In this document: in pieces, positions 4,565-56,450 of the stretch
How the letters are laid out: each line of letters begins with the position of its first letter
Numbering within the stretch: the stretch's first letter is position 1
DNA from: Olavius algarvensis Gamma 3 endosymbiont
Lineage (GTDB): Bacteria > Pseudomonadota > Gammaproteobacteria > GCA-001735895
Direction: 5' to 3'
Length of the DNA: 64,000 bases
NCBI GenBank assembly: GCA_001735895.1
Contig: DS021198.1
Coordinates: 478,340 to 542,339, forward strand
Translations under genes and position numbers: made by a program
The notes under the pieces: generated by a model
The model's database searches: none
What the model was told of the DNA's origin: nothing
The model's input: only the letters and a program-made list of their open reading frames with translations

Positions 4565-5458
4565 TCAAGATAGCTGGTTTTGCGCCAGATCGGTAAGCCA
4601 ACTCGCCACGATCCTGGTTTCGCGCCGGGCTATATTCGGCGGTGGCTGGCGCAGATAATAGTCGGTCAACAGAAAATGAGCCGCACTAAAGACTTCCACC
4701 AGTTCACCCGATTGTAAATAGCGATCGATAAACGGCCTGCGTCCGAGCATGACGCCATCGCCTCGTTGGGCCGCTTCGATAGCGATTAGCGAACTATCCA
4801 CCGATAGTCCACCGGGGACGAGGTCGTTTTCCAGCTGATGTTTCCGAAACCATCGATGCCAGTCGTCGTCATAGCCAAGCACGTGTATCAACTCCATTTG
4901 CAGTATGTCGGCCGCTTGCTGCAGCCGTTTCCCGTCTTTTAATAGCGTGGGCGCGCATACCGGGGTTATGGTTGAGGTCAGCAGTCTGGATGTGTTGGCG
5001 TCGATGTCATCGTCTCTTTGGATGAAAATTTCCAGATTCGAATGCGCCAGGGACTGGTTGCGCGCCGGTTGCTCAAGCGTCTTGATGCGCAATTCGATAT
5101 TCGGATGAAAGGTTTGGAAGGTTTTGAGTTCAGGCGCCAGCCAAAGGGTGGCGACGCTGGAGGTGCAAGCTAAATTTACGATTCTGCTCTGAAGCTGGGG
5201 AAACAACTGGTCGGTGATCGAATCGAGTCGATCGAGCGCCTCGTGCACCGTGTCGTAGTAGACCTGACCGGTATTGGTCAGGGTTAATCGTCGATTATGC
5301 CGCACAAACAGCGGTGTGTTCAGGTAAGCTTCGAGCTGGCGAATTTGTTGGCTGACCGCTGCCTGGGAGACGTTCAGATCCTGTGCCGCCTGCGAAAAGT
5401 TAAGGCGCCGACCGGCTGCCTCGAAGGTCCTCAGGATATTTAAACGGGGTCGTTTCAA
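4565..5458 (-). CDS. LysR-family transcriptional regulator (GcvA-like)
   Basis: N-terminal HTH FSQAAQDLNVSQAAVSQQIRQLE, ~297 aa. Divergent from the mttB-like gene. Confidence 0.9.
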   Translation of the reverse strand: MKRPRLNILRTFEAAGRRLNFSQAAQDLNVSQAAVSQQIRQLEAYLNTPLFVRHNRRLTLTNTGQVYYDTVHEALDRLDSITDQLFPQLQSRIVNLACTSSVATLWLAPELKTFQTFHPNIELRIKTLEQPARNQSLAHSNLEIFIQRDDDIDANTSRLLTSTITPVCAPTLLKDGKRLQQAADILQMELIHVLGYDDDWHRWFRKHQLENDLVPGGLSVDSSLIAIEAAQRGDGVMLGRRPFIDRYLQSGELVEVFSAAHFLLTDYYLRQPPPNIARRETRIVASWLTDLAQNQLS

Positions 5459-5470
5459 GCGCGATATAAA

Positions 5471-5485
5471 ATAAGTTTTACTTAT
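5471..5485. promoter_or_regulatory. candidate LysR-type T-N11-A operator
   Basis: Perfect dyad ATAAGT-TTT-ACTTAT, containing T-N11-A. It lies in the 112-bp divergent region between the LysR gene and the mttB-like gene. Confidence 0.45.
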
Positions 5486-5570
5486 GGATATTGGCAGGAA
5501 TCAGCGCTTGACGCAAGTCATGCCGCTTCCTACAGTCTACGTCATCACGCCTGATTTGGATCGGCAGCCG

Positions 5571-7095
5571 ATGAATTTCTTTTCGTACCTGAGCCGTGAC
5601 GATATTCAATATGTACACGATGCCTCGCTCGAAATCCTCGCGGAAGTCGGGCTGCTGGTGCGCAACCAGAAGGCCAGAGGGCGATTTGCCGAGCATGGCG
5701 CCAAGGTCGACCAGCAGACCGGGATCGTGCGAATACCGGCAATCGTCGTCGAAAAATATAGAAAGTTGGTGCCGCCGACGATTACTTTACGCGGTCGCGA
5801 TCCGAGTTGCGACGTCACTTTTCCGCGTAAGCTGCCGGTCATCGCTACCGCGAGTTCGGCGCCGGATATTGTCGATCCGGTAACCGGTGTTACCCGGCGC
5901 TCGCGCTCTGACGACATAGCTCGTATTGCTCACCTGGTGAATCAATTACCCGGATTCGACCTGTTCTCGATTTCTACCCTCGCCGACGATGCACCGCCGG
6001 CTCAGTTTAGTCTGTCGCGCTTTTATCCTGCGCTGAAGAACTGCGTTAAACCCTGCCGTACCTCCGTTTACGACATCCGCGAAGCGCGTCAGGTGCTCAA
6101 GCTGGGAGAGCTGATTGCCGGTTCGAAACAAGCCTTCCGGGAACGGCCATTCATCAATTTCGGTTATTGTTCGATTGTCTCCCCATTGACGATGGATTTC
6201 GACAGCACCGAAACTTTGATGTTCTTTGCCGAGAATGATATTACCGCTTACGGTACGGTCGCGCCCATGGGAGGACTCAGTACGCCAATGTCGTTGCCGG
6301 GTATGCTGACCTTGATGAATGCCGAATGGCTGGCGGCGGTGACACTGGCGCAGATGTCTAAACCCGGTACCGCTCAGATTTACAATTTCCTACCCGTGTT
6401 CGCGGATATGCGCGATGGCGCCTATGCACCGGGTGCGATCGAGATCGGCATGATGAACTCGGCAGTTTGCCAGATGGCCCGCTTCTACAATGTACCGTCG
6501 GGCGGTTACCTCGGCCTTACTAATGCCAAGCTCAGTGACGCGCAGGCAGGATATGAAAAGGGTATGTCGCCGTTGATGGGGGCTCTTTCGGGGGGTTGAT
6601 TTCATCGTAATGGGCGGCTTGCTCGATGCCTTGATGTCATTCGATTTTGCGCAGGCCACGATCGATAACGAAATTGCGCTGATGGTTAAAAGGGTACGCG
6701 ACGGATTCGGCTTCAGCCGCGAGAGTGCCGCGCTGCAGGAAATCAAGGATACCGGTCCGGCGGGGATGTTTGCCGCCAATCCCGAAACCCTGGAACGTAT
6801 GCACAGCGCTACCTTCATGCCGGAGCTGGCCGATCGGAAGTTGCGTGAGCAGTGGCAGCAGGAAGGCTCGTCGACGATCCATCAGAGGGCACTGAACAAG
6901 GCTTTCGATATTCTAGCCACGACCAATCCCGCGGCACTTGATCCTGCCGTCGATGCACGCATTCGCGCCGAATTCGATGGTCTGGTGGCTGGAGATTCGA
7001 AGTTGCCGGAGGGCTGGCGGCGATTCGATGTCGGCAGCGCTGCGCCAATGCGTGGGCGACGACCCAGCCGCCGGCGCGCCCGCAAGGCAAGCTAA
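5571..7095 (+). pseudogene. MttB-family (trimethylamine/quaternary-amine) methyltransferase, reading frame broken at a G6 run
   Basis: ORFs 5484..6599 and 6610..7095 together give ~508 aa from ATG 5571 (MNFFSYLSRDDIQYVHDASLEILAEVGL...), the usual MttB-family length. The second frame is open from 6577. A -1/+1 change in GGGGGG (6590-6595) joins ...GALSGG to VDFIVMGGLLDALMSFDFAQATIDNEI. Confidence 0.75.
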
Positions 7096-51753: not shown

Positions 51754-52943
51754 CCCCGCTTGCGCGCACTGCTGTCCGGAATAAATCATAATGCCAACTG
51801 TGCTTGATGTATTTGGAAATCGGATTTCCATTTTCGTCGTCGTTTAAGTACTTCGAATTCGAGTCTGGGTCGCTGGAATAGAGTCGATTTGAGTTCCGCC
51901 AGCCACAGATAAAAACCGCGTCTCGATCCACAAAGTTGCCGGTATAGATCGGCGATGAGATACGTGATCAATGCCACCAGTATCTGGATTTTGACCGCAT
52001 TCTCGCTTTGACCGAGAAACTTTTTGATTTTCAGGTTCTGCTTGAACCGGGACCCCCATCAGGTTGGTTACCAGTACCAGCGGGTCCACATGATCCTCTC
52101 GATGCACCACTATTCGCCGCAACGGTTTGACGTAGTTGTTTTTCCGGCCGCCGCCAGGCCATTTGTTTTTAAACTCAATGACCTCATCCGACAGTATATC
52201 TCCTTCGGTCGAGCGGCTTTTGAGCACCCCGATCGATGCGTTACGCTTTAACCGGGTCACAAAGAAAGCACCCTCCTGGTCGATTTGATGCCACCAATTG
52301 TAATCGCAATATCCCTTATCAAACACATACTTAGCGCCCTTCTCGATTTCAACATTGCGTCCATACTCAATATCGTTCTGGGTCGATGCCGTGATCCGAG
52401 CGTCACAAGGCAACTGCTTGTCGGGGGAATACAGCAGGTGAATCTTCAGGCCCGGAATGCGTGACATACTACGCGCTTGCGTCCACTCATAACCCCGGCC
52501 GCGCAGACAGATCGGCGTCGAGTCCAACAGATAGAGCAAGTCCTTTATCTCATTGCGTACTCGCCGATGAGCCCGGCCCATCAGCTGCTGGCAGAATGAT
52601 TCAAATACCCCGGCATCTCGTTGGCGATTGGCATCCGATAAAGTCGAGCGCTTAATCGGACCGCAGCCCAGGTGATAGTGATGCGCGGAATGACTATTGT
52701 AGCTCACCTCCAACTCGCGCAAGCTCCGACAACCGGACAATTGAGCATACATCAGACACGCAGCGTTTGAAAGTATTTTTAGGAAGGACTTTCAAAAGTT
52801 CGCCAAATCGGGTATTTGTATACATGTTGCAGTGTCCTGAAATTAAGTTGTCGCTTATGGTTTTATTCGTAAAACCCGGGCACTGCAACACTTTCAAATA
52901 CACCAACTTAATTTATTCCGGACAGCAGTGCGCGTAAGCGGGG
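51754..52943 (-). mobile_element. decayed IS4-family-like insertion sequence (~1.19 kb) with ~33-bp terminal inverted repeats
   Basis: CCCCGCTTGCGCGCACTGCTGTCCGGAATAAAT (51754-51786) matches the reverse complement of 52911-52943 (CCCCGCTTACGCGCACTGCTGTCCGGAATAAAT) with 1 mismatch. Encloses the transposase fragments. Confidence 0.8.
51786..52906 (-). pseudogene. IS4-family (DUF4372 + DDE_Tnp_1 type) transposase, in three frames with internal deletions
   Basis: N-terminal fragment 52694..52906 (NTRFGELLKVLPKNTFKRCV), core 51844..52752 (MYAQLSGCRSLRELE...YVFDKGYCDYNWW...) and C-terminal fragment 51786..51977 (ALITYLIADLY...). The usual RWxIE segment before FKQNLKIKKFLG is absent. Confidence 0.75.
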
Positions 52944-53062
52944 ATCTTAAAGCAGCAGCGAGGTGATTATCGACAGACTGCGATTCGGCGGGCCGCCGCT
53001 AACGCGGAGATGACGCTATCGAGCTTGGGTTGTCGCCTGTCGCGTCCGGCCTCAGAATTCGC

Positions 53063-53090
53063 TTGAAATCAATTCGGGGATAGGTATTAT
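53063..53090 (+). promoter_or_regulatory. candidate sigma-70 promoter for tRNA-Lys
   Basis: TTGAAA (53063-53068), a 16-nt spacer, then TATTAT (53085-53090), ~17 nt upstream of the mature tRNA 5' end. Confidence 0.5.
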
Positions 53091-53106
53091 TCCCCGTTCT
53101 TTCCGG

Positions 53107-53182
53107 GGGCCGTTAGCTCAGTTGGTAGAGCATCTGACTTTTAATCAGGTGGTCGAGCGTTCGAATCGCTCACGGCCCACCA
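53107..53182 (+). tRNA. tRNA-Lys (anticodon UUU)
   Basis: Manual cloverleaf: acceptor GGGCCGT/ACGGCCC, D stem GCTC/GAGC, anticodon arm TCTGA-CTTTTAA-TCAGG, T arm GAGCG-TTCGAAT-CGCTC, encoded CCA; 76 nt. Confidence 0.93.
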
Positions 53183-53618
53183 TTTTTCCCTAGTTACTAC
53201 TGCCTCGATCCTTCAGGTCGAATGCTTCAGCTCGCCCACCTGATTAAAAGTCAGATGCGGCGGAAGCGCATGGAAATTCGGCGAACTCGATAGCGTTCGA
53301 CAAATTTGCCGGGAGCAAATTTGGACGCCCGCAGGGCGGCCCCGCAGGCCGGCAAGGCCGGCCGGAGGGGTGCGGCACAAGGATGTGCCGCACAATCGCT
53401 CACGGCCCACCATTTTTTCTCTAGTTACTACCGCCACGATTCTTCGGGTCATATGCTTTAGCTCGCCCACCTGATTAAAAGTCAGATGCGAGCGGCCTGT
53501 ACACTGTTGCACGAGCGTTCGACAAATTCGCCTGGAGGCCGCACAATCGCTCACGGCCCACCATTTTTTCTCTAGTTACTATTGTCACGATTCTTCAGGT
53601 CGAATGCTTTAGCTCGCC
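53164..53618. repeat. array of tRNA-Lys-derived repeats (three copies of the tRNA 3' end plus a conserved trailer; two inverted anticodon-arm copies)
   Basis: AATCGCTCACGGCCCACCA occurs at 53164, 53394 and 53544, each followed by a similar TTTTT..CTAGTTACTA... trailer. CCACCTGATTAAAAGTCAGATGC (the reverse complement of the anticodon arm) is at 53236-53258 and 53467-53489. Confidence 0.85.
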
Positions 53619-54014
53619 AAGCTCCCGGTTGTATCGCCCCAGCCAACATATTGGCCTACGGAATACTGCGTCAAAAACGGGGGGTTTCATAATTCGGCAT
53701 AATGTTTATAATTGCGGTCCTGTGTGCAGGCCGCATTGCCGCTCTCGATACATCAGTGTTTACGGAGACAGCATGTGAGGCCCTGCAGGCGGAAGACTGG
53801 TAACAATAACTGACGAAGCGCGCATCGCATGCGCCAAACTTCGAAATAAATATCTTCCGTCATTACCAACCTGGGCTCTAGCATTAGACTTTGTCGAATT
53901 CACGGCAGTCTGGAACCTGGCGCAACGGCAGCGACTAGCATTATTAGTGTACCTATTGAATTACCCGGCGTTAAAGCTTGAGTTATTCCTACAACCATAA
54001 GAGGGTCAGTCAAA

Positions 54015-56450
54015 ATGAACACTAAGCTTGCTCGATATCTCTTACCCTTAGCCTTAATCTATTCGTCTACGCTGTTAGGGCACAGCGCAATGTTCCCGGA
54101 CAGTTTCATATTCGACGATTCCAATGAAGGCGAGCCGGCACAAATGATGCGCTCGCTGATGCGCGGGGAAGCTGCGGCCGCGGCGGCCACCGCCTGCGTC
54201 GGCGGTCAGGCCAACGGTTACCCCTGCAACAAGGTCGACTTTCAATCTTTCCTGGCGAAAGCCGACATGGGCGGCGGCTCCGCCAACCTGAACGATATCT
54301 GGGGATGGAACGACCCCCTGAACGGAGGCGAGTACGCCATTGTCGGGCGTGTCAACGGCACCTCTTTCGTCGACATAACAGACCCGGCCAACCCGGTATT
54401 TATGGGTTTTTTACCTTCGCATAACGGTGGCAGCGCTTCGTGGCGCGATATCAAGGTGTATAACGATCATGCGTTTATTGTTGCCGACGGCAGCGCAAAT
54501 AACACCCACGGTTTGCAGGTATTCGACCTCGGTACGCTCAGGGACATCACCACGCCGGGCGGCACACTGAGCGAAACCGCGCATCTCGGCGGTTTTGGGA
54601 ATGCGCACAATATAGCAGTCAACGAAGACACCGGTTACGCCTATATCGTCGGCAGCAACCAGTGCAGCGGCGGCCTCTATATGGTAAACGTCTCTAATCC
54701 GACTTCGCCTTCGTTTGCCGGCTGTTTTTCGTCCGACGGTTACACGCATGATACGCAATGCGTGGTTTACAACGGCCCGGACACGGACTATCTGGGACGC
54801 GAGATTTGTATCGGCTACAATGAAGACACCATCACGATCGTCGACGTGCAAAACAAATCGAACCCGGTGCAGATCGCGCGCCAGGGTTACAGCGGCTCCC
54901 AATATACGCACCAGGGCTGGTTCCTGGACGATAGCCACGAATTGCTGATCATGAACGACGAGCTGGACGAACAGCGCAATGGCATTAATACACCTCGTAT
55001 ATTTGGGACGTGCGCGATCTCGATAATCCGCAAGAGATCGGCCGTTACGTCGGACCGACGACGGCCATTGATCATAACCTCTACACCAAAGACAACCTGG
55101 TTTTTGAAACGAATTACCGCGCCGGGCTGAGAATCCTCTCGACCCTGGGTATCGCCAATGGCGAATTGCAGGAAGAGGCTTACTTCGACACCATTCCGGG
55201 TTCCGATAGCGCGCAGTTTTCCGGCACCTGGAGCAGCTACATTTACTTCGGCAGCGGCAATGTCGCGCTAAGCGACATCGGTAACGGATTGTTTGTGGTC
55301 ACCCCCCGACTATGCCGCGATCAACCAACCGCCGCCGCCGCCACCGCCGCCGCCCAGCGGCTGTTTCTACGAAGGGACCTTCGAAAACGACGCCGATGGC
55401 TGGAGCAGCGGCCCCGGCAATAGCTGTTCGACCGGAACCTTCGTGCGCGGCACGCCGACGGCAACGTCGAGTGGCGGCACTACCCTTCAAGTCGCGGGCG
55501 CCGATACGGGGACAGGGGCCTGGTTCACCGCGCCGAATACGGCAATCGGCACCAACGACGTCGATAATGGAACCTGTGAAACACTTTCGCCTATCGTTGA
55601 TGCGAGCGACGCTACCAATGCCGAGGTTTCGCTGGCTTATTTTCACGGCCAGCGGGACGCCGGCGACGATAGCGCCGATGGATTTAGCATCGAAATTTTG
55701 AATAACGGTGCGGTCGTGTCCACGCCGGTTAGTATCGGAGACCTGAGCAACAACGCCGCTTGGACCAATGTAACCGCGCTGGTGGCGAATCCCGGTGAAA
55801 TCCGGATTCGCGTACGGGCGAGCGACGCGCCGGGCGCCGGCGACATTGTCGAAGCCGGAATCGACCAGGTGCGCGTTTGCTCCACCGATGCCGGACCGCC
55901 ACCGCCGCCACCGCCGCCGCCAAGCTGCAGCGTCGAAGAAGGCTTCGAGGCCGGAGCCGGCGGCTGGTCGAATTCATCCGCATCGAGTTGCACCACCGGC
56001 GATTTTGTCAGCGCAACGCCTAGTGTGCAAAGCAACGGCAACGTCACCACCCAGGTTGGTGGCGCCAACAGCGGCAACAACGCCTATTTCACCGCCACCA
56101 ACTCCAGCGCCGGGCGCGACGATGTCGATGGCGGCAACTGTATTGCCAATTCGCCCACCTATTCGGTGAGCGAGAATTCGACGCTGTCGGTATCCTATTT
56201 CCACGGCCAGCGCGACAGCGGCGACGATGCGACGGATTTCTTCAACTTGGAGATGTCCCTCGATGGCGGCAATAATTTCACCTCCATCGCAAGTAATGGT
56301 GACTCGGCATCCAACGCCAGCTGGACGGACGCGAGCGCGCAGGTGCCGGCGGGATCGAATGTTGCGCTTCGAGTCCAATGTTCCGATGGCGCGTCGGCCG
56401 GCGACCTCGTAGAATGCGGCATTGACGATATTTCGATCTGTCCGAATTAA
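54015..56450 (+). pseudogene. large secreted choice-of-anchor-B/LVIVD-type beta-propeller protein with two C-terminal ~185-aa repeat domains; two frameshifts
   Basis: ORFs 54015..55130 (frame 0), 55010..55423 (frame 2) and 55293..56450 (frame 0) form one ~810-aa protein. Breaks are near 54989-54998 and at the C6 run 55302-55307. It has a signal peptide and propeller-like repeats (e.g. HNIAVNEDTGYAYIVG, ITIVDVQN). Confidence 0.7.
55329..55355 (+). repeat. (CCG/CCA)9 tract encoding a Pro9 linker
   Basis: CCGCCGCCGCCGCCACCGCCGCCGCCC. A second Pro9 tract is at 55896-55922. Each precedes one copy of the duplicated domain. Confidence 0.85.

Follow-up and report, generated by a model that had tools for sequence, protein, structure and literature searches.

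What are the short repeats that trail the tRNA-Lys gene of this DNA, and how did they arise? In the window, i.e. the whole 64-kb stretch that was analysed, ARAGORN and the Rfam tRNA model agree on one tRNA, the tRNA-Lys(UUU) at 53107-53182 recognized in the earlier note, and the 3′ end of this gene (AATCGCTCACGGCCCACCA, 19 nt, tRNA positions 58-76) is present in exactly three copies, at 53164, 53394 and 53545, against a chance expectation of 0.01. The recurrence had been noticed correctly, except that the last copy was placed one base off, at 53544, and was attributed to serial integration and excision by an integrase or, alternatively, to decay of a tandem tRNA-Lys cluster. Our analysis leads to a different reading, namely that the region is very probably a tRNA-linked repeat (TLR, RtT-like) array consisting of the intact tRNA-Lys(UUU) and two TLR units, with the core intact in unit 2 and deleted internally in unit 3. 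[quoted passage not shown]

Parts of the array and its genomic setting

53063..53090, + strand: promoter-like site TTGAAA-16-TATTAT, 5′ of tRNA-Lys (consensus scan only, 10/12 matches)
53107..53182, + strand: tRNA-Lys(UUU), intact gene (ARAGORN; Rfam tRNA model, 74.4 bits)
53183..53229, + strand: trailer copy 1, with a T run at its start and without a strong terminator hairpin (trailer alignment and motif)
53217..53301, + strand: left-flank foldback with the inverted anticodon hairpin at its apex (MFE fold of 53183-53412, z-score -3.5)
53230..53258, + strand: inverted copy 1 of tRNA positions 24-52, i.e. anticodon arm, variable loop and start of the T-stem (29 nt, one mismatch)
53292..53300, + strand: T-arm fragment AGCGTTCGA, direct copy of tRNA positions 50-58 (T-stem 5′ strand and TTCGA); left junction of unit 2
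53299..53394, + strand: intact TLR core, hairpins P1-P4 (model R1, 84.8 bits; covariation, 45 sequences)
53370-53393: hairpin GTGCGGCAC-AAGGAT-GTGCCGCAC
53394..53412, + strand: copy 2 of tRNA positions 58-76, the right junction and TLR hallmark (exact, 19/19 nt)
53413..53460, + strand: trailer copy 2 (trailer alignment and motif)
53461..53489, + strand: inverted copy 2 of tRNA positions 24-52 (29 nt, one mismatch)
53512..53522, + strand: T-arm fragment CGAGCGTTCGA, direct copy of tRNA positions 48-58; left junction of unit 3
53523..53544, + strand: internally deleted core, 5′ end CAAATTCGCCTGGAG joined to 3′ end GCCGCAC (direct reading against unit 2)
53545..53563, + strand: copy 3 of tRNA positions 58-76 (exact, 19/19 nt)
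53564..53618, + strand: trailer copy 3, without an inverted anticodon arm at its end
53213..53554, - strand: 113-aa ORF, rightly dismissed earlier as a repeat artefact (mechanical ORF; no Pfam match; antisense to the structured RNA element)

The same trailer does follow each of the three 3′-end copies, as had been stated: the motif CTAGTTACTA-N6-CGATNCTTCNGGTC has three occurrences where none is expected, the three trailers (~48 nt) agree pairwise at 38-42 of about 48 positions, and the 86-nt repeat copies, which continue ~50 nt past the tRNA end into the trailer, are 69-91% identical to each other. In the array TRF reports only a 13-nt micro-repeat and misses the units, because these differ by large indels. 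The units begin directly after tRNA-Lys on the same (+) strand, and a scan of the region revealed no terminator-like site between the gene and the units.

Each unit consists, in order, of an inverted tRNA fragment, a T-stem/T-loop piece ending in ...GTTCGA, a core of ~95 nt at position 58, the last 19 nt of the tRNA and a copy of the tRNA's trailer. The inverted anticodon arm described in the earlier note is present but longer than noted, being a 29-nt complement of tRNA positions 24-52 with one mismatch; an extension of this copy from position 52 to position 58 has no local-alignment support and is hinted at by the predicted foldback alone, in which TCGAATGCT..CTCGCC pairs with GGCGA..AGCGTTCGA. 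Analogous foldbacks are also found 5′ of the core in E. coli and metagenome units, and the inverted anticodon arm is the long version of an inverted tRNA piece that is general 5′ of TLR cores. The earlier remark that the inverted arms fit neither an integrase nor a decay model holds, such a piece being instead a general part of TLRs, as in E. coli RtT and the unit after lysQ.

The T-arm fragments that precede copies 2 and 3 were found at 53292-53300 and 53512-53522, both running on into CAAATT as described, and the T loop is indeed the junction, with the break between tRNA positions 57 and 59. Read as tRNA, units 2 and 3 are each a T arm broken at position 58, by 93 nt in unit 2 and by 22 nt in unit 3. 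What lies in the break had been taken for unrelated DNA, with an extra GC-rich insert in unit 2; it is actually a conserved module, ~95 nt long, whose four hairpins show strong covariation; there is no extra insert. Since the 22 nt of unit 3 equal both ends of the 93-nt sequence of unit 2, unit 3 is a deletion derivative, the same element less ~72 nt of its interior. The unit of the window has a folding z-score of -3.5 to -4.0; the core of unit 3 receives no score from model R1 (described below), and unit 3 folds no better than shuffles (z-score -0.5). This core being lost, the array is therefore decaying at least in part. GGA sites are located in the P1 loop, the P1-P2 linker and the P4 loop (AAGGAU) of the window's core, and the 135 nt before the tRNA-end copy contain six GGA motifs against 1.9 expected, two of them in predicted hairpin loops.

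Upstream of tRNA-Lys and its array lie tolA-like, tolB, pal and cpoB/ybgF genes, and the promoter-like site at 53063-53090, judged by its match to the consensus, is likely to be the start of a putative transcript spanning the whole array. An IS of 1174 bp (51760-52933) with terminal inverted repeats TTGCGCGCACTGCTGTCCGGAATAAAT... sits between cpoB and tRNA-Lys, carries a DDE_Tnp_1 transposase of 302 aa (51844-52752, minus strand) and has the cpoB terminator hairpin as its target (CCCCGC^GTAAGCGGGG, where ^ here and below marks a junction). The IS is missing from two metagenome contigs (L001, L002) that have an identical CpoB and the same array, and is thus polymorphic in the population; contigs L003-L006 break ~140 bp past cpoB. 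Sequence words of the window are present in DNA runs from annelid metagenomes, and the closest genomes in a CpoB scan of species representatives are those of uncultured Gammaproteobacteria. In one related uncultured gammaproteobacterium (L011), in which tRNA-Lys is without a TLR, a Phage_integrase gene (5224-6057, minus strand) is found immediately 3′ of tRNA-Lys, and tRNA-Lys is thus a true integration site in relatives.

An Rfam scan of the region at E ≤ 10 returned the tRNA, antisense matches to two plastid families, a 12.6-bit RsmV fragment and nothing else. The plastid matches, Plastid-ycf2 (RF04354) and Plastid-psbl-rps4 (RF04351), are sub-threshold, occur antisense to bacterial tRNA genes (53107-53180 of the window, minus strand, and E. 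coli tRNAs) and are evidently tRNA-derived false positives.

The core module, its structure and its contexts

The conservation of the module can be followed from close to distant relatives. In L009, with a CpoB 72% identical to that of the window, tRNA-Lys is followed by one unit of the same build, in which the window's hairpin GTGCGGCAC-AAGGAT-GTGCCGCAC has become GTGCCGCAC-AAGGAT-GTGCGGCAC, a compensatory G-C swap in P4. In L020, where CpoB is 50% identical, tRNA-Lys and a terminator are followed by a GGA-rich structured stretch, the last 19 nt of the tRNA (with one change) and a second copy of the terminator, and the short GC hairpin covaries between this locus and the window. As compensatory changes occur in both L009 and L020, the supposed insert is conserved and structured.

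Metagenome contigs were scanned with an exact pattern of the conserved centre in which the covarying positions were left free, yielding 105 stretches. The core (~75-100 nt) is found beside tRNA-Ser (four anticodons), Val, Gln, Glu, Pro, Arg and Lys, i.e. at least seven kinds of tRNA, and in both orientations; the units, often two or three in tandem, are flanked by sequence matching the local tRNA and without exception have their junction in the T loop. The arrangement at tRNAs takes three forms: an intact tRNA followed by a unit, as in the window; a full tRNA copy broken in the T loop, with an intact identical tRNA ~50 nt later; and the same with the core inverted relative to the tRNA, which exploits the palindrome TTCGAA in the T loop. 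Further copies occur within REP-like palindromes or on their own, in the latter case with their own rho-independent terminator. When contexts were tallied over 60 non-redundant cores, 22 were in a T loop on the same strand as the tRNA and 3 in a T loop but inverted, 21 were in REP-like palindromes, 12 stood alone with a terminator and 2 fell elsewhere. The cores have a common junction, (C/G)GA^CAAAT...CA^A(T/A/C)C.

The structure was derived with RNAalifold from an alignment of 45 cores (A1), giving four helices with 23 pairs. In this alignment 96.1% of cells are paired, compared with 81.3% in shuffles, and there are 158 double changes, compared with 45, a result matched by none of 500 shuffles; slid controls reach at most 46% paired. 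At position 31/39 in P2, which the search pattern had left free, A-U, G-C, C-G and U-A are all seen. The pair at columns 42/76 is G-U in 30 of the 45 sequences and would be C-A on the opposite strand, from which it follows that the folded strand is the + strand, carrying GGA. The GGA motifs of the P1 loop, the P1-P2 linker and the P4 loop are nearly invariant across the 45 sequences.

Two further sets of sequences came to light in this survey. In L089 (4450 and downstream) and L121 (6927) a core seems to interrupt tRNA-Ser-like sequence elsewhere, at ..GAGTGGTTGA^CAAAT in the D-arm region, with a second, partial core in the T loop, and here one tRNA gene may have taken insertions at two or more sites. 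In several Pseudomonas species (L066, 4188-4414; L044, 5752-5903; L079, 5830-5906; L061, 5722-5947; L040, L042, L055, L068) one to three head-to-tail TLR-like cores, each unit with GGA hairpin loops, lie just 3′ of ybgF/cpoB and convergent with it. The two of these arrays whose sequences were inspected (L066, L079) end in a rho-independent terminator of their own, and no Rfam family, the Rsm families included, matches the Pseudomonas arrays at E ≤ 0.1. They look like unannotated Csr/Rsm-type sRNA genes.

Counterparts in E. coli

TLRs were first described in E. coli in 1978, and K-12 has 22 of them, spread over ten loci; in over 40 years no function has become known for them (PMC8144298). RrA, RrB and RrF follow the 5S rRNA in rrnA/B/D (Egan & Landy 1978; Rudd 1999; Stenum et al. 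2021, PMC8144298) and bind Hfq and CsrA in vitro, via GGA motifs (PMC8144298). The 19 tRNA-linked, RtT-type E. coli TLRs score low as predicted CsrA binders (PMC8144298), and CsrA binding is thus not a family-wide property. TLR conservation has been reported within Enterobacteriales only (PMC8144298), whereas the window belongs to an uncultured gammaproteobacterium from annelid metagenomes.

A covariance model, R1, was built from alignment A1, i.e. from 43 metagenome cores, the window and L009, with zero E. coli sequences. R1 matches E. coli RrB in the rrnB T1-T2 spacer (L194, 438-512) over its full length, with 65.5 bits and an E value of 7e-15. The core of the window is homologous to RrB, and its structure is conserved by covariation on the GGA strand. 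Both contain P1 and P4 hairpins that have GGA loops, a short GC hairpin and CCC/GGG, and in both the core is joined, at ..GGA^CAAAT, to a left flank made of a short stretch of the host gene. As in RrA, RrB and RrF, each unit of the window is closed by 18-19 nt that repeat the 3′ end of the stable-RNA gene upstream, the TLR hallmark, and lies in the operon and the orientation of that host gene. The differences are that the host gene is tRNA-Lys in the window and 5S rRNA for RrA, RrB and RrF, and that the window, compared with RrB, has an extra hairpin on P3 and the inverted anticodon arm in the left flank. The left flank of RrB, CTGAGTAGGA, is a copy of part of 5S, the sequence GAGTAGGGA that immediately precedes the 3′ helix strand. 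The rrnB T1T2 cassette serves as a terminator in many cloning vectors.

The relation to RtT/rttR (RF00391) is one of architecture. The order of parts is the same in both: tRNA, trailer, inverted tRNA piece, direct T-stem/TTCGA, core, the last 18-19 nt of the tRNA and the repeated trailer. At K-12 tyrT-tyrV there are four RF00391 units (133-137 bits), each with trailer, inverted T-arm copy, direct AAGGTTCGA, core and the last 19 nt of tRNA-Tyr, as in the window. The cpoB-lysT locus, which the earlier note had aptly singled out for comparison, lies in the same neighbourhood, 3′ of cpoB, and its synteny is cpoB-lysT-valT-lysW-valZ-lysY-lysZ-lysQ; the same architecture is present there, with five RF00391 matches (46.7-60 bits) after its tRNA-Lys genes, each unit ending in ATCCTGCACGACCCACCA, the last 18 nt of the tRNA. 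The last of these, after lysQ, has a duplicated terminator and T-arm foldback, with an inverted T-arm copy 5′ of the core.

In its core RtT is more distant. RtT cores are without the P1 and P4 GGA hairpins that the window's core has, and RF00391 (gathering threshold 45 bits), which gives 47-137 bits on the E. coli controls, has no match at 52000-55000 of the window even at E ≤ 10. R1 matches the tyrT and lysT RtT units weakly, with 7-10 bits, yet in register via a central block common to RtT and the window, ACG-hairpin-CGGCCCGAAGGG. RrB has outer hairpins in common with the window's core and a central hairpin in common with RtT, forming a bridge between the two. As R1 sees RtT weakly and RF00391 misses the window, the link between the window and RtT runs through RrB and the common architecture.

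BLAST with the consensus core matched E. coli, Klebsiella and Salmonella chromosomes. In E. coli M217 (L192, 2502-2579) a core of ~78 nt, scoring 64.7 bits with R1, breaks an ERIC element between yeiS and preT; in E. coli CFSAN029787 the yeiS-preT locus is without the 78 nt and its flanks are 99.5% identical (L192 versus L198). The ERIC-borne core is full-length in ~240-300 of 5426 complete E. coli genomes and the same locus is empty in the others, and the yeiS-preT core is thus a filled/empty polymorphism. In the E. coli serV-argVYZQ operon (L196), directly 3′ of csrA, sub-threshold RtT matches of 22.8-31 bits follow argQ and also lie in the spacers 3′ of argV and argZ; TLRs thus adjoin csrA.

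Origin, working and rival explanations

The direct repeats of a tRNA 3′ end, starting in the T loop, are a feature that the window has in common with integrase att scars and CIMEs, and the earlier note had accordingly favoured serial integration and excision by a tyrosine integrase at the T loop of tRNA-Lys, the islands since deleted. This origin we now consider very unlikely. The DNA between the repeats amounts to just 150-230 bp and is the conserved TLR core, not island DNA; the repeat identity runs ~50 nt beyond the tRNA and takes in the trailer; and the left junction, a T-stem 5′ piece fused to the core, is no product of conservative att recombination. The same RNA-like module is found beside other tRNAs and also away from tRNAs, after 5S rRNA and in ERIC and REP, where an att site is not expected, and its pattern has no match in 2.9 million viral contigs. 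No integrase was detected among the ORFs, examined with Pfam, within 5 kb of the array. The integrase gene of L011 shows that integrases can use the tRNA-Lys site, but an integrase did not make the array of the window. The second proposal, that the units are decayed members of an ancestral tandem tRNA-Lys cluster, could appeal to the five tRNA-Lys genes at the syntenic E. coli locus and to the metagenome loci where the core lies inside a full-length second tRNA copy. It is nonetheless highly improbable, as both checks that had been suggested for it turned out negative: ARAGORN and the Rfam models (E ≤ 10) score no pseudo-tRNA on either strand, only the one gene, and the relatives L009, L143 and L152 display the same non-tRNA architecture instead of intact tandem genes. 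Moreover, direct-orientation 5′ halves are absent upstream of the T-arm fragments, and the anticodon arm copies are inverted.

Several other candidates were considered and found no support, the homology to RrB explaining the data: a primer-binding site of retroviral type, the minus strand being the complement of the tRNA 3′ end; a mimic of the T-box-like or kissing-loop kind; mimicry of tRNA in the manner of tmRNA or Y-RNA; a PATE or omega-RNA of IS200/IS605; the bridge RNA of an IS110; and an integron attC. A sigma-54 or GacA-box promoter for the core was dropped after inspection by eye.

For the TLR array itself, the filled and empty alleles, both orientations, common junction and unrelated palindromes suggest that the core is a discrete insertion module. 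In the window the core would have entered the T loop at GA^A, within a 3′ part of the gene that had been duplicated, and tandem duplication of the unit would have followed. No flank is duplicated around the core at the ERIC and REP sites, for which reason the gene-part duplications at tRNAs and 5S rRNA may reflect the survival of those insertions that spared the gene. A literature search for T-loop MITEs returned nothing. As to working, what is known of RrB suggests that the array would be read through from the tRNA-Lys promoter, and we think it probable that the array is transcribed. The repeated tRNA 3′ end and trailer would, as at RrB, act as processing signals that free the core RNA, the GGA loops of which would bind CsrA/RsmA, and such binding would couple CsrA activity to stable-RNA transcription. 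Whether the core RNA does bind CsrA is a question on which we lean, by a little, to the negative. A regex search revealed no csrA in the 64-kb window.

The window shares with the Csr/Rsm sponge sRNAs (CsrB/C, RsmX/Y/Z/V/W) the presence of several GGA motifs in predicted hairpin loops, and we take its AAGGAUG in a hairpin to resemble the high-affinity CsrA site of the SELEX consensus. Unlike these sponges, however, it is embedded in a tRNA operon, has no evident dedicated promoter and exposes ~3 GGA per unit; the Rfam clan of the Csr/Rsm families (CL00106) has no match above threshold in the window, the fragment matching RsmV at 53368-53389 being partial and weak (12.6 bits against a gathering score of 100). 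In being a putative regulatory RNA to be released from a tRNA primary transcript it also resembles 3′ETS-leuZ, which has no sequence relation to the window and base-pairs with sRNAs, as opposed to the protein titration proposed here. Among annelid metatranscriptome contigs none covers the array locus. In wetland metatranscriptome contigs there are cores with an identity of 90% or more to the window core in its 5′ half (53295-53354), continuing like the tRNA-Gln-linked copies; these suggest that family members are transcribed in nature, DNA carry-over being also possible.

With rather less than even confidence we also propose a joint reading in which the TLR core is a widespread protein-less insertion module that enters ..(C/G)GA^A(T/C)C.. 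on the 3′ side of hairpins and is also a CsrA-type sponge, TLRs being the surviving insertions into essential stable-RNA genes. Its targets would be tRNA T loops in either orientation, the 3′ helix of 5S, and REP and ERIC palindromes, and the duplicated gene part would keep the tRNA intact. The array could instead contain a selfish or neutral insertion relic, passively co-transcribed and without a host role, whose structure is kept for its own spread. This we hold to be unlikely, if a serious contender, as it agrees with the many unrelated contexts and both orientations relative to tRNAs, the filled and empty sites among E. coli strains, the internal deletion in unit 3 of the window and the more than four decades in which TLRs have had no known function. 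Against it stand the retention of GGA in loops across very divergent hosts, the terminators owned by stand-alone copies, the resemblance of the Pseudomonas tandem arrays to dedicated sRNA genes and the in vitro binding of CsrA and Hfq by RrB (PMC8144298).

The array is a new and divergent member of the known but poorly understood TLR class, missed by the Rfam RtT model, and the range outside enterobacteria, the covariation, the target pattern and the stand-alone Pseudomonas arrays go beyond the papers that could be searched. For annotation it carries a warning: not every set of direct repeats of a tRNA 3′ end was left by an integrase. TLRs have stood unexplained in the stable-RNA operons of E. 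coli since 1978; the same module, its structure under clear selection, is now seen far outside the enterobacteria, adjoining tRNA-Lys at a genomic position shared with E. coli, and the comparative set, with its tRNA kinds, orientations, REP/ERIC sites, stand-alone arrays and filled and empty alleles, offers a handle on the role and origin of TLRs.
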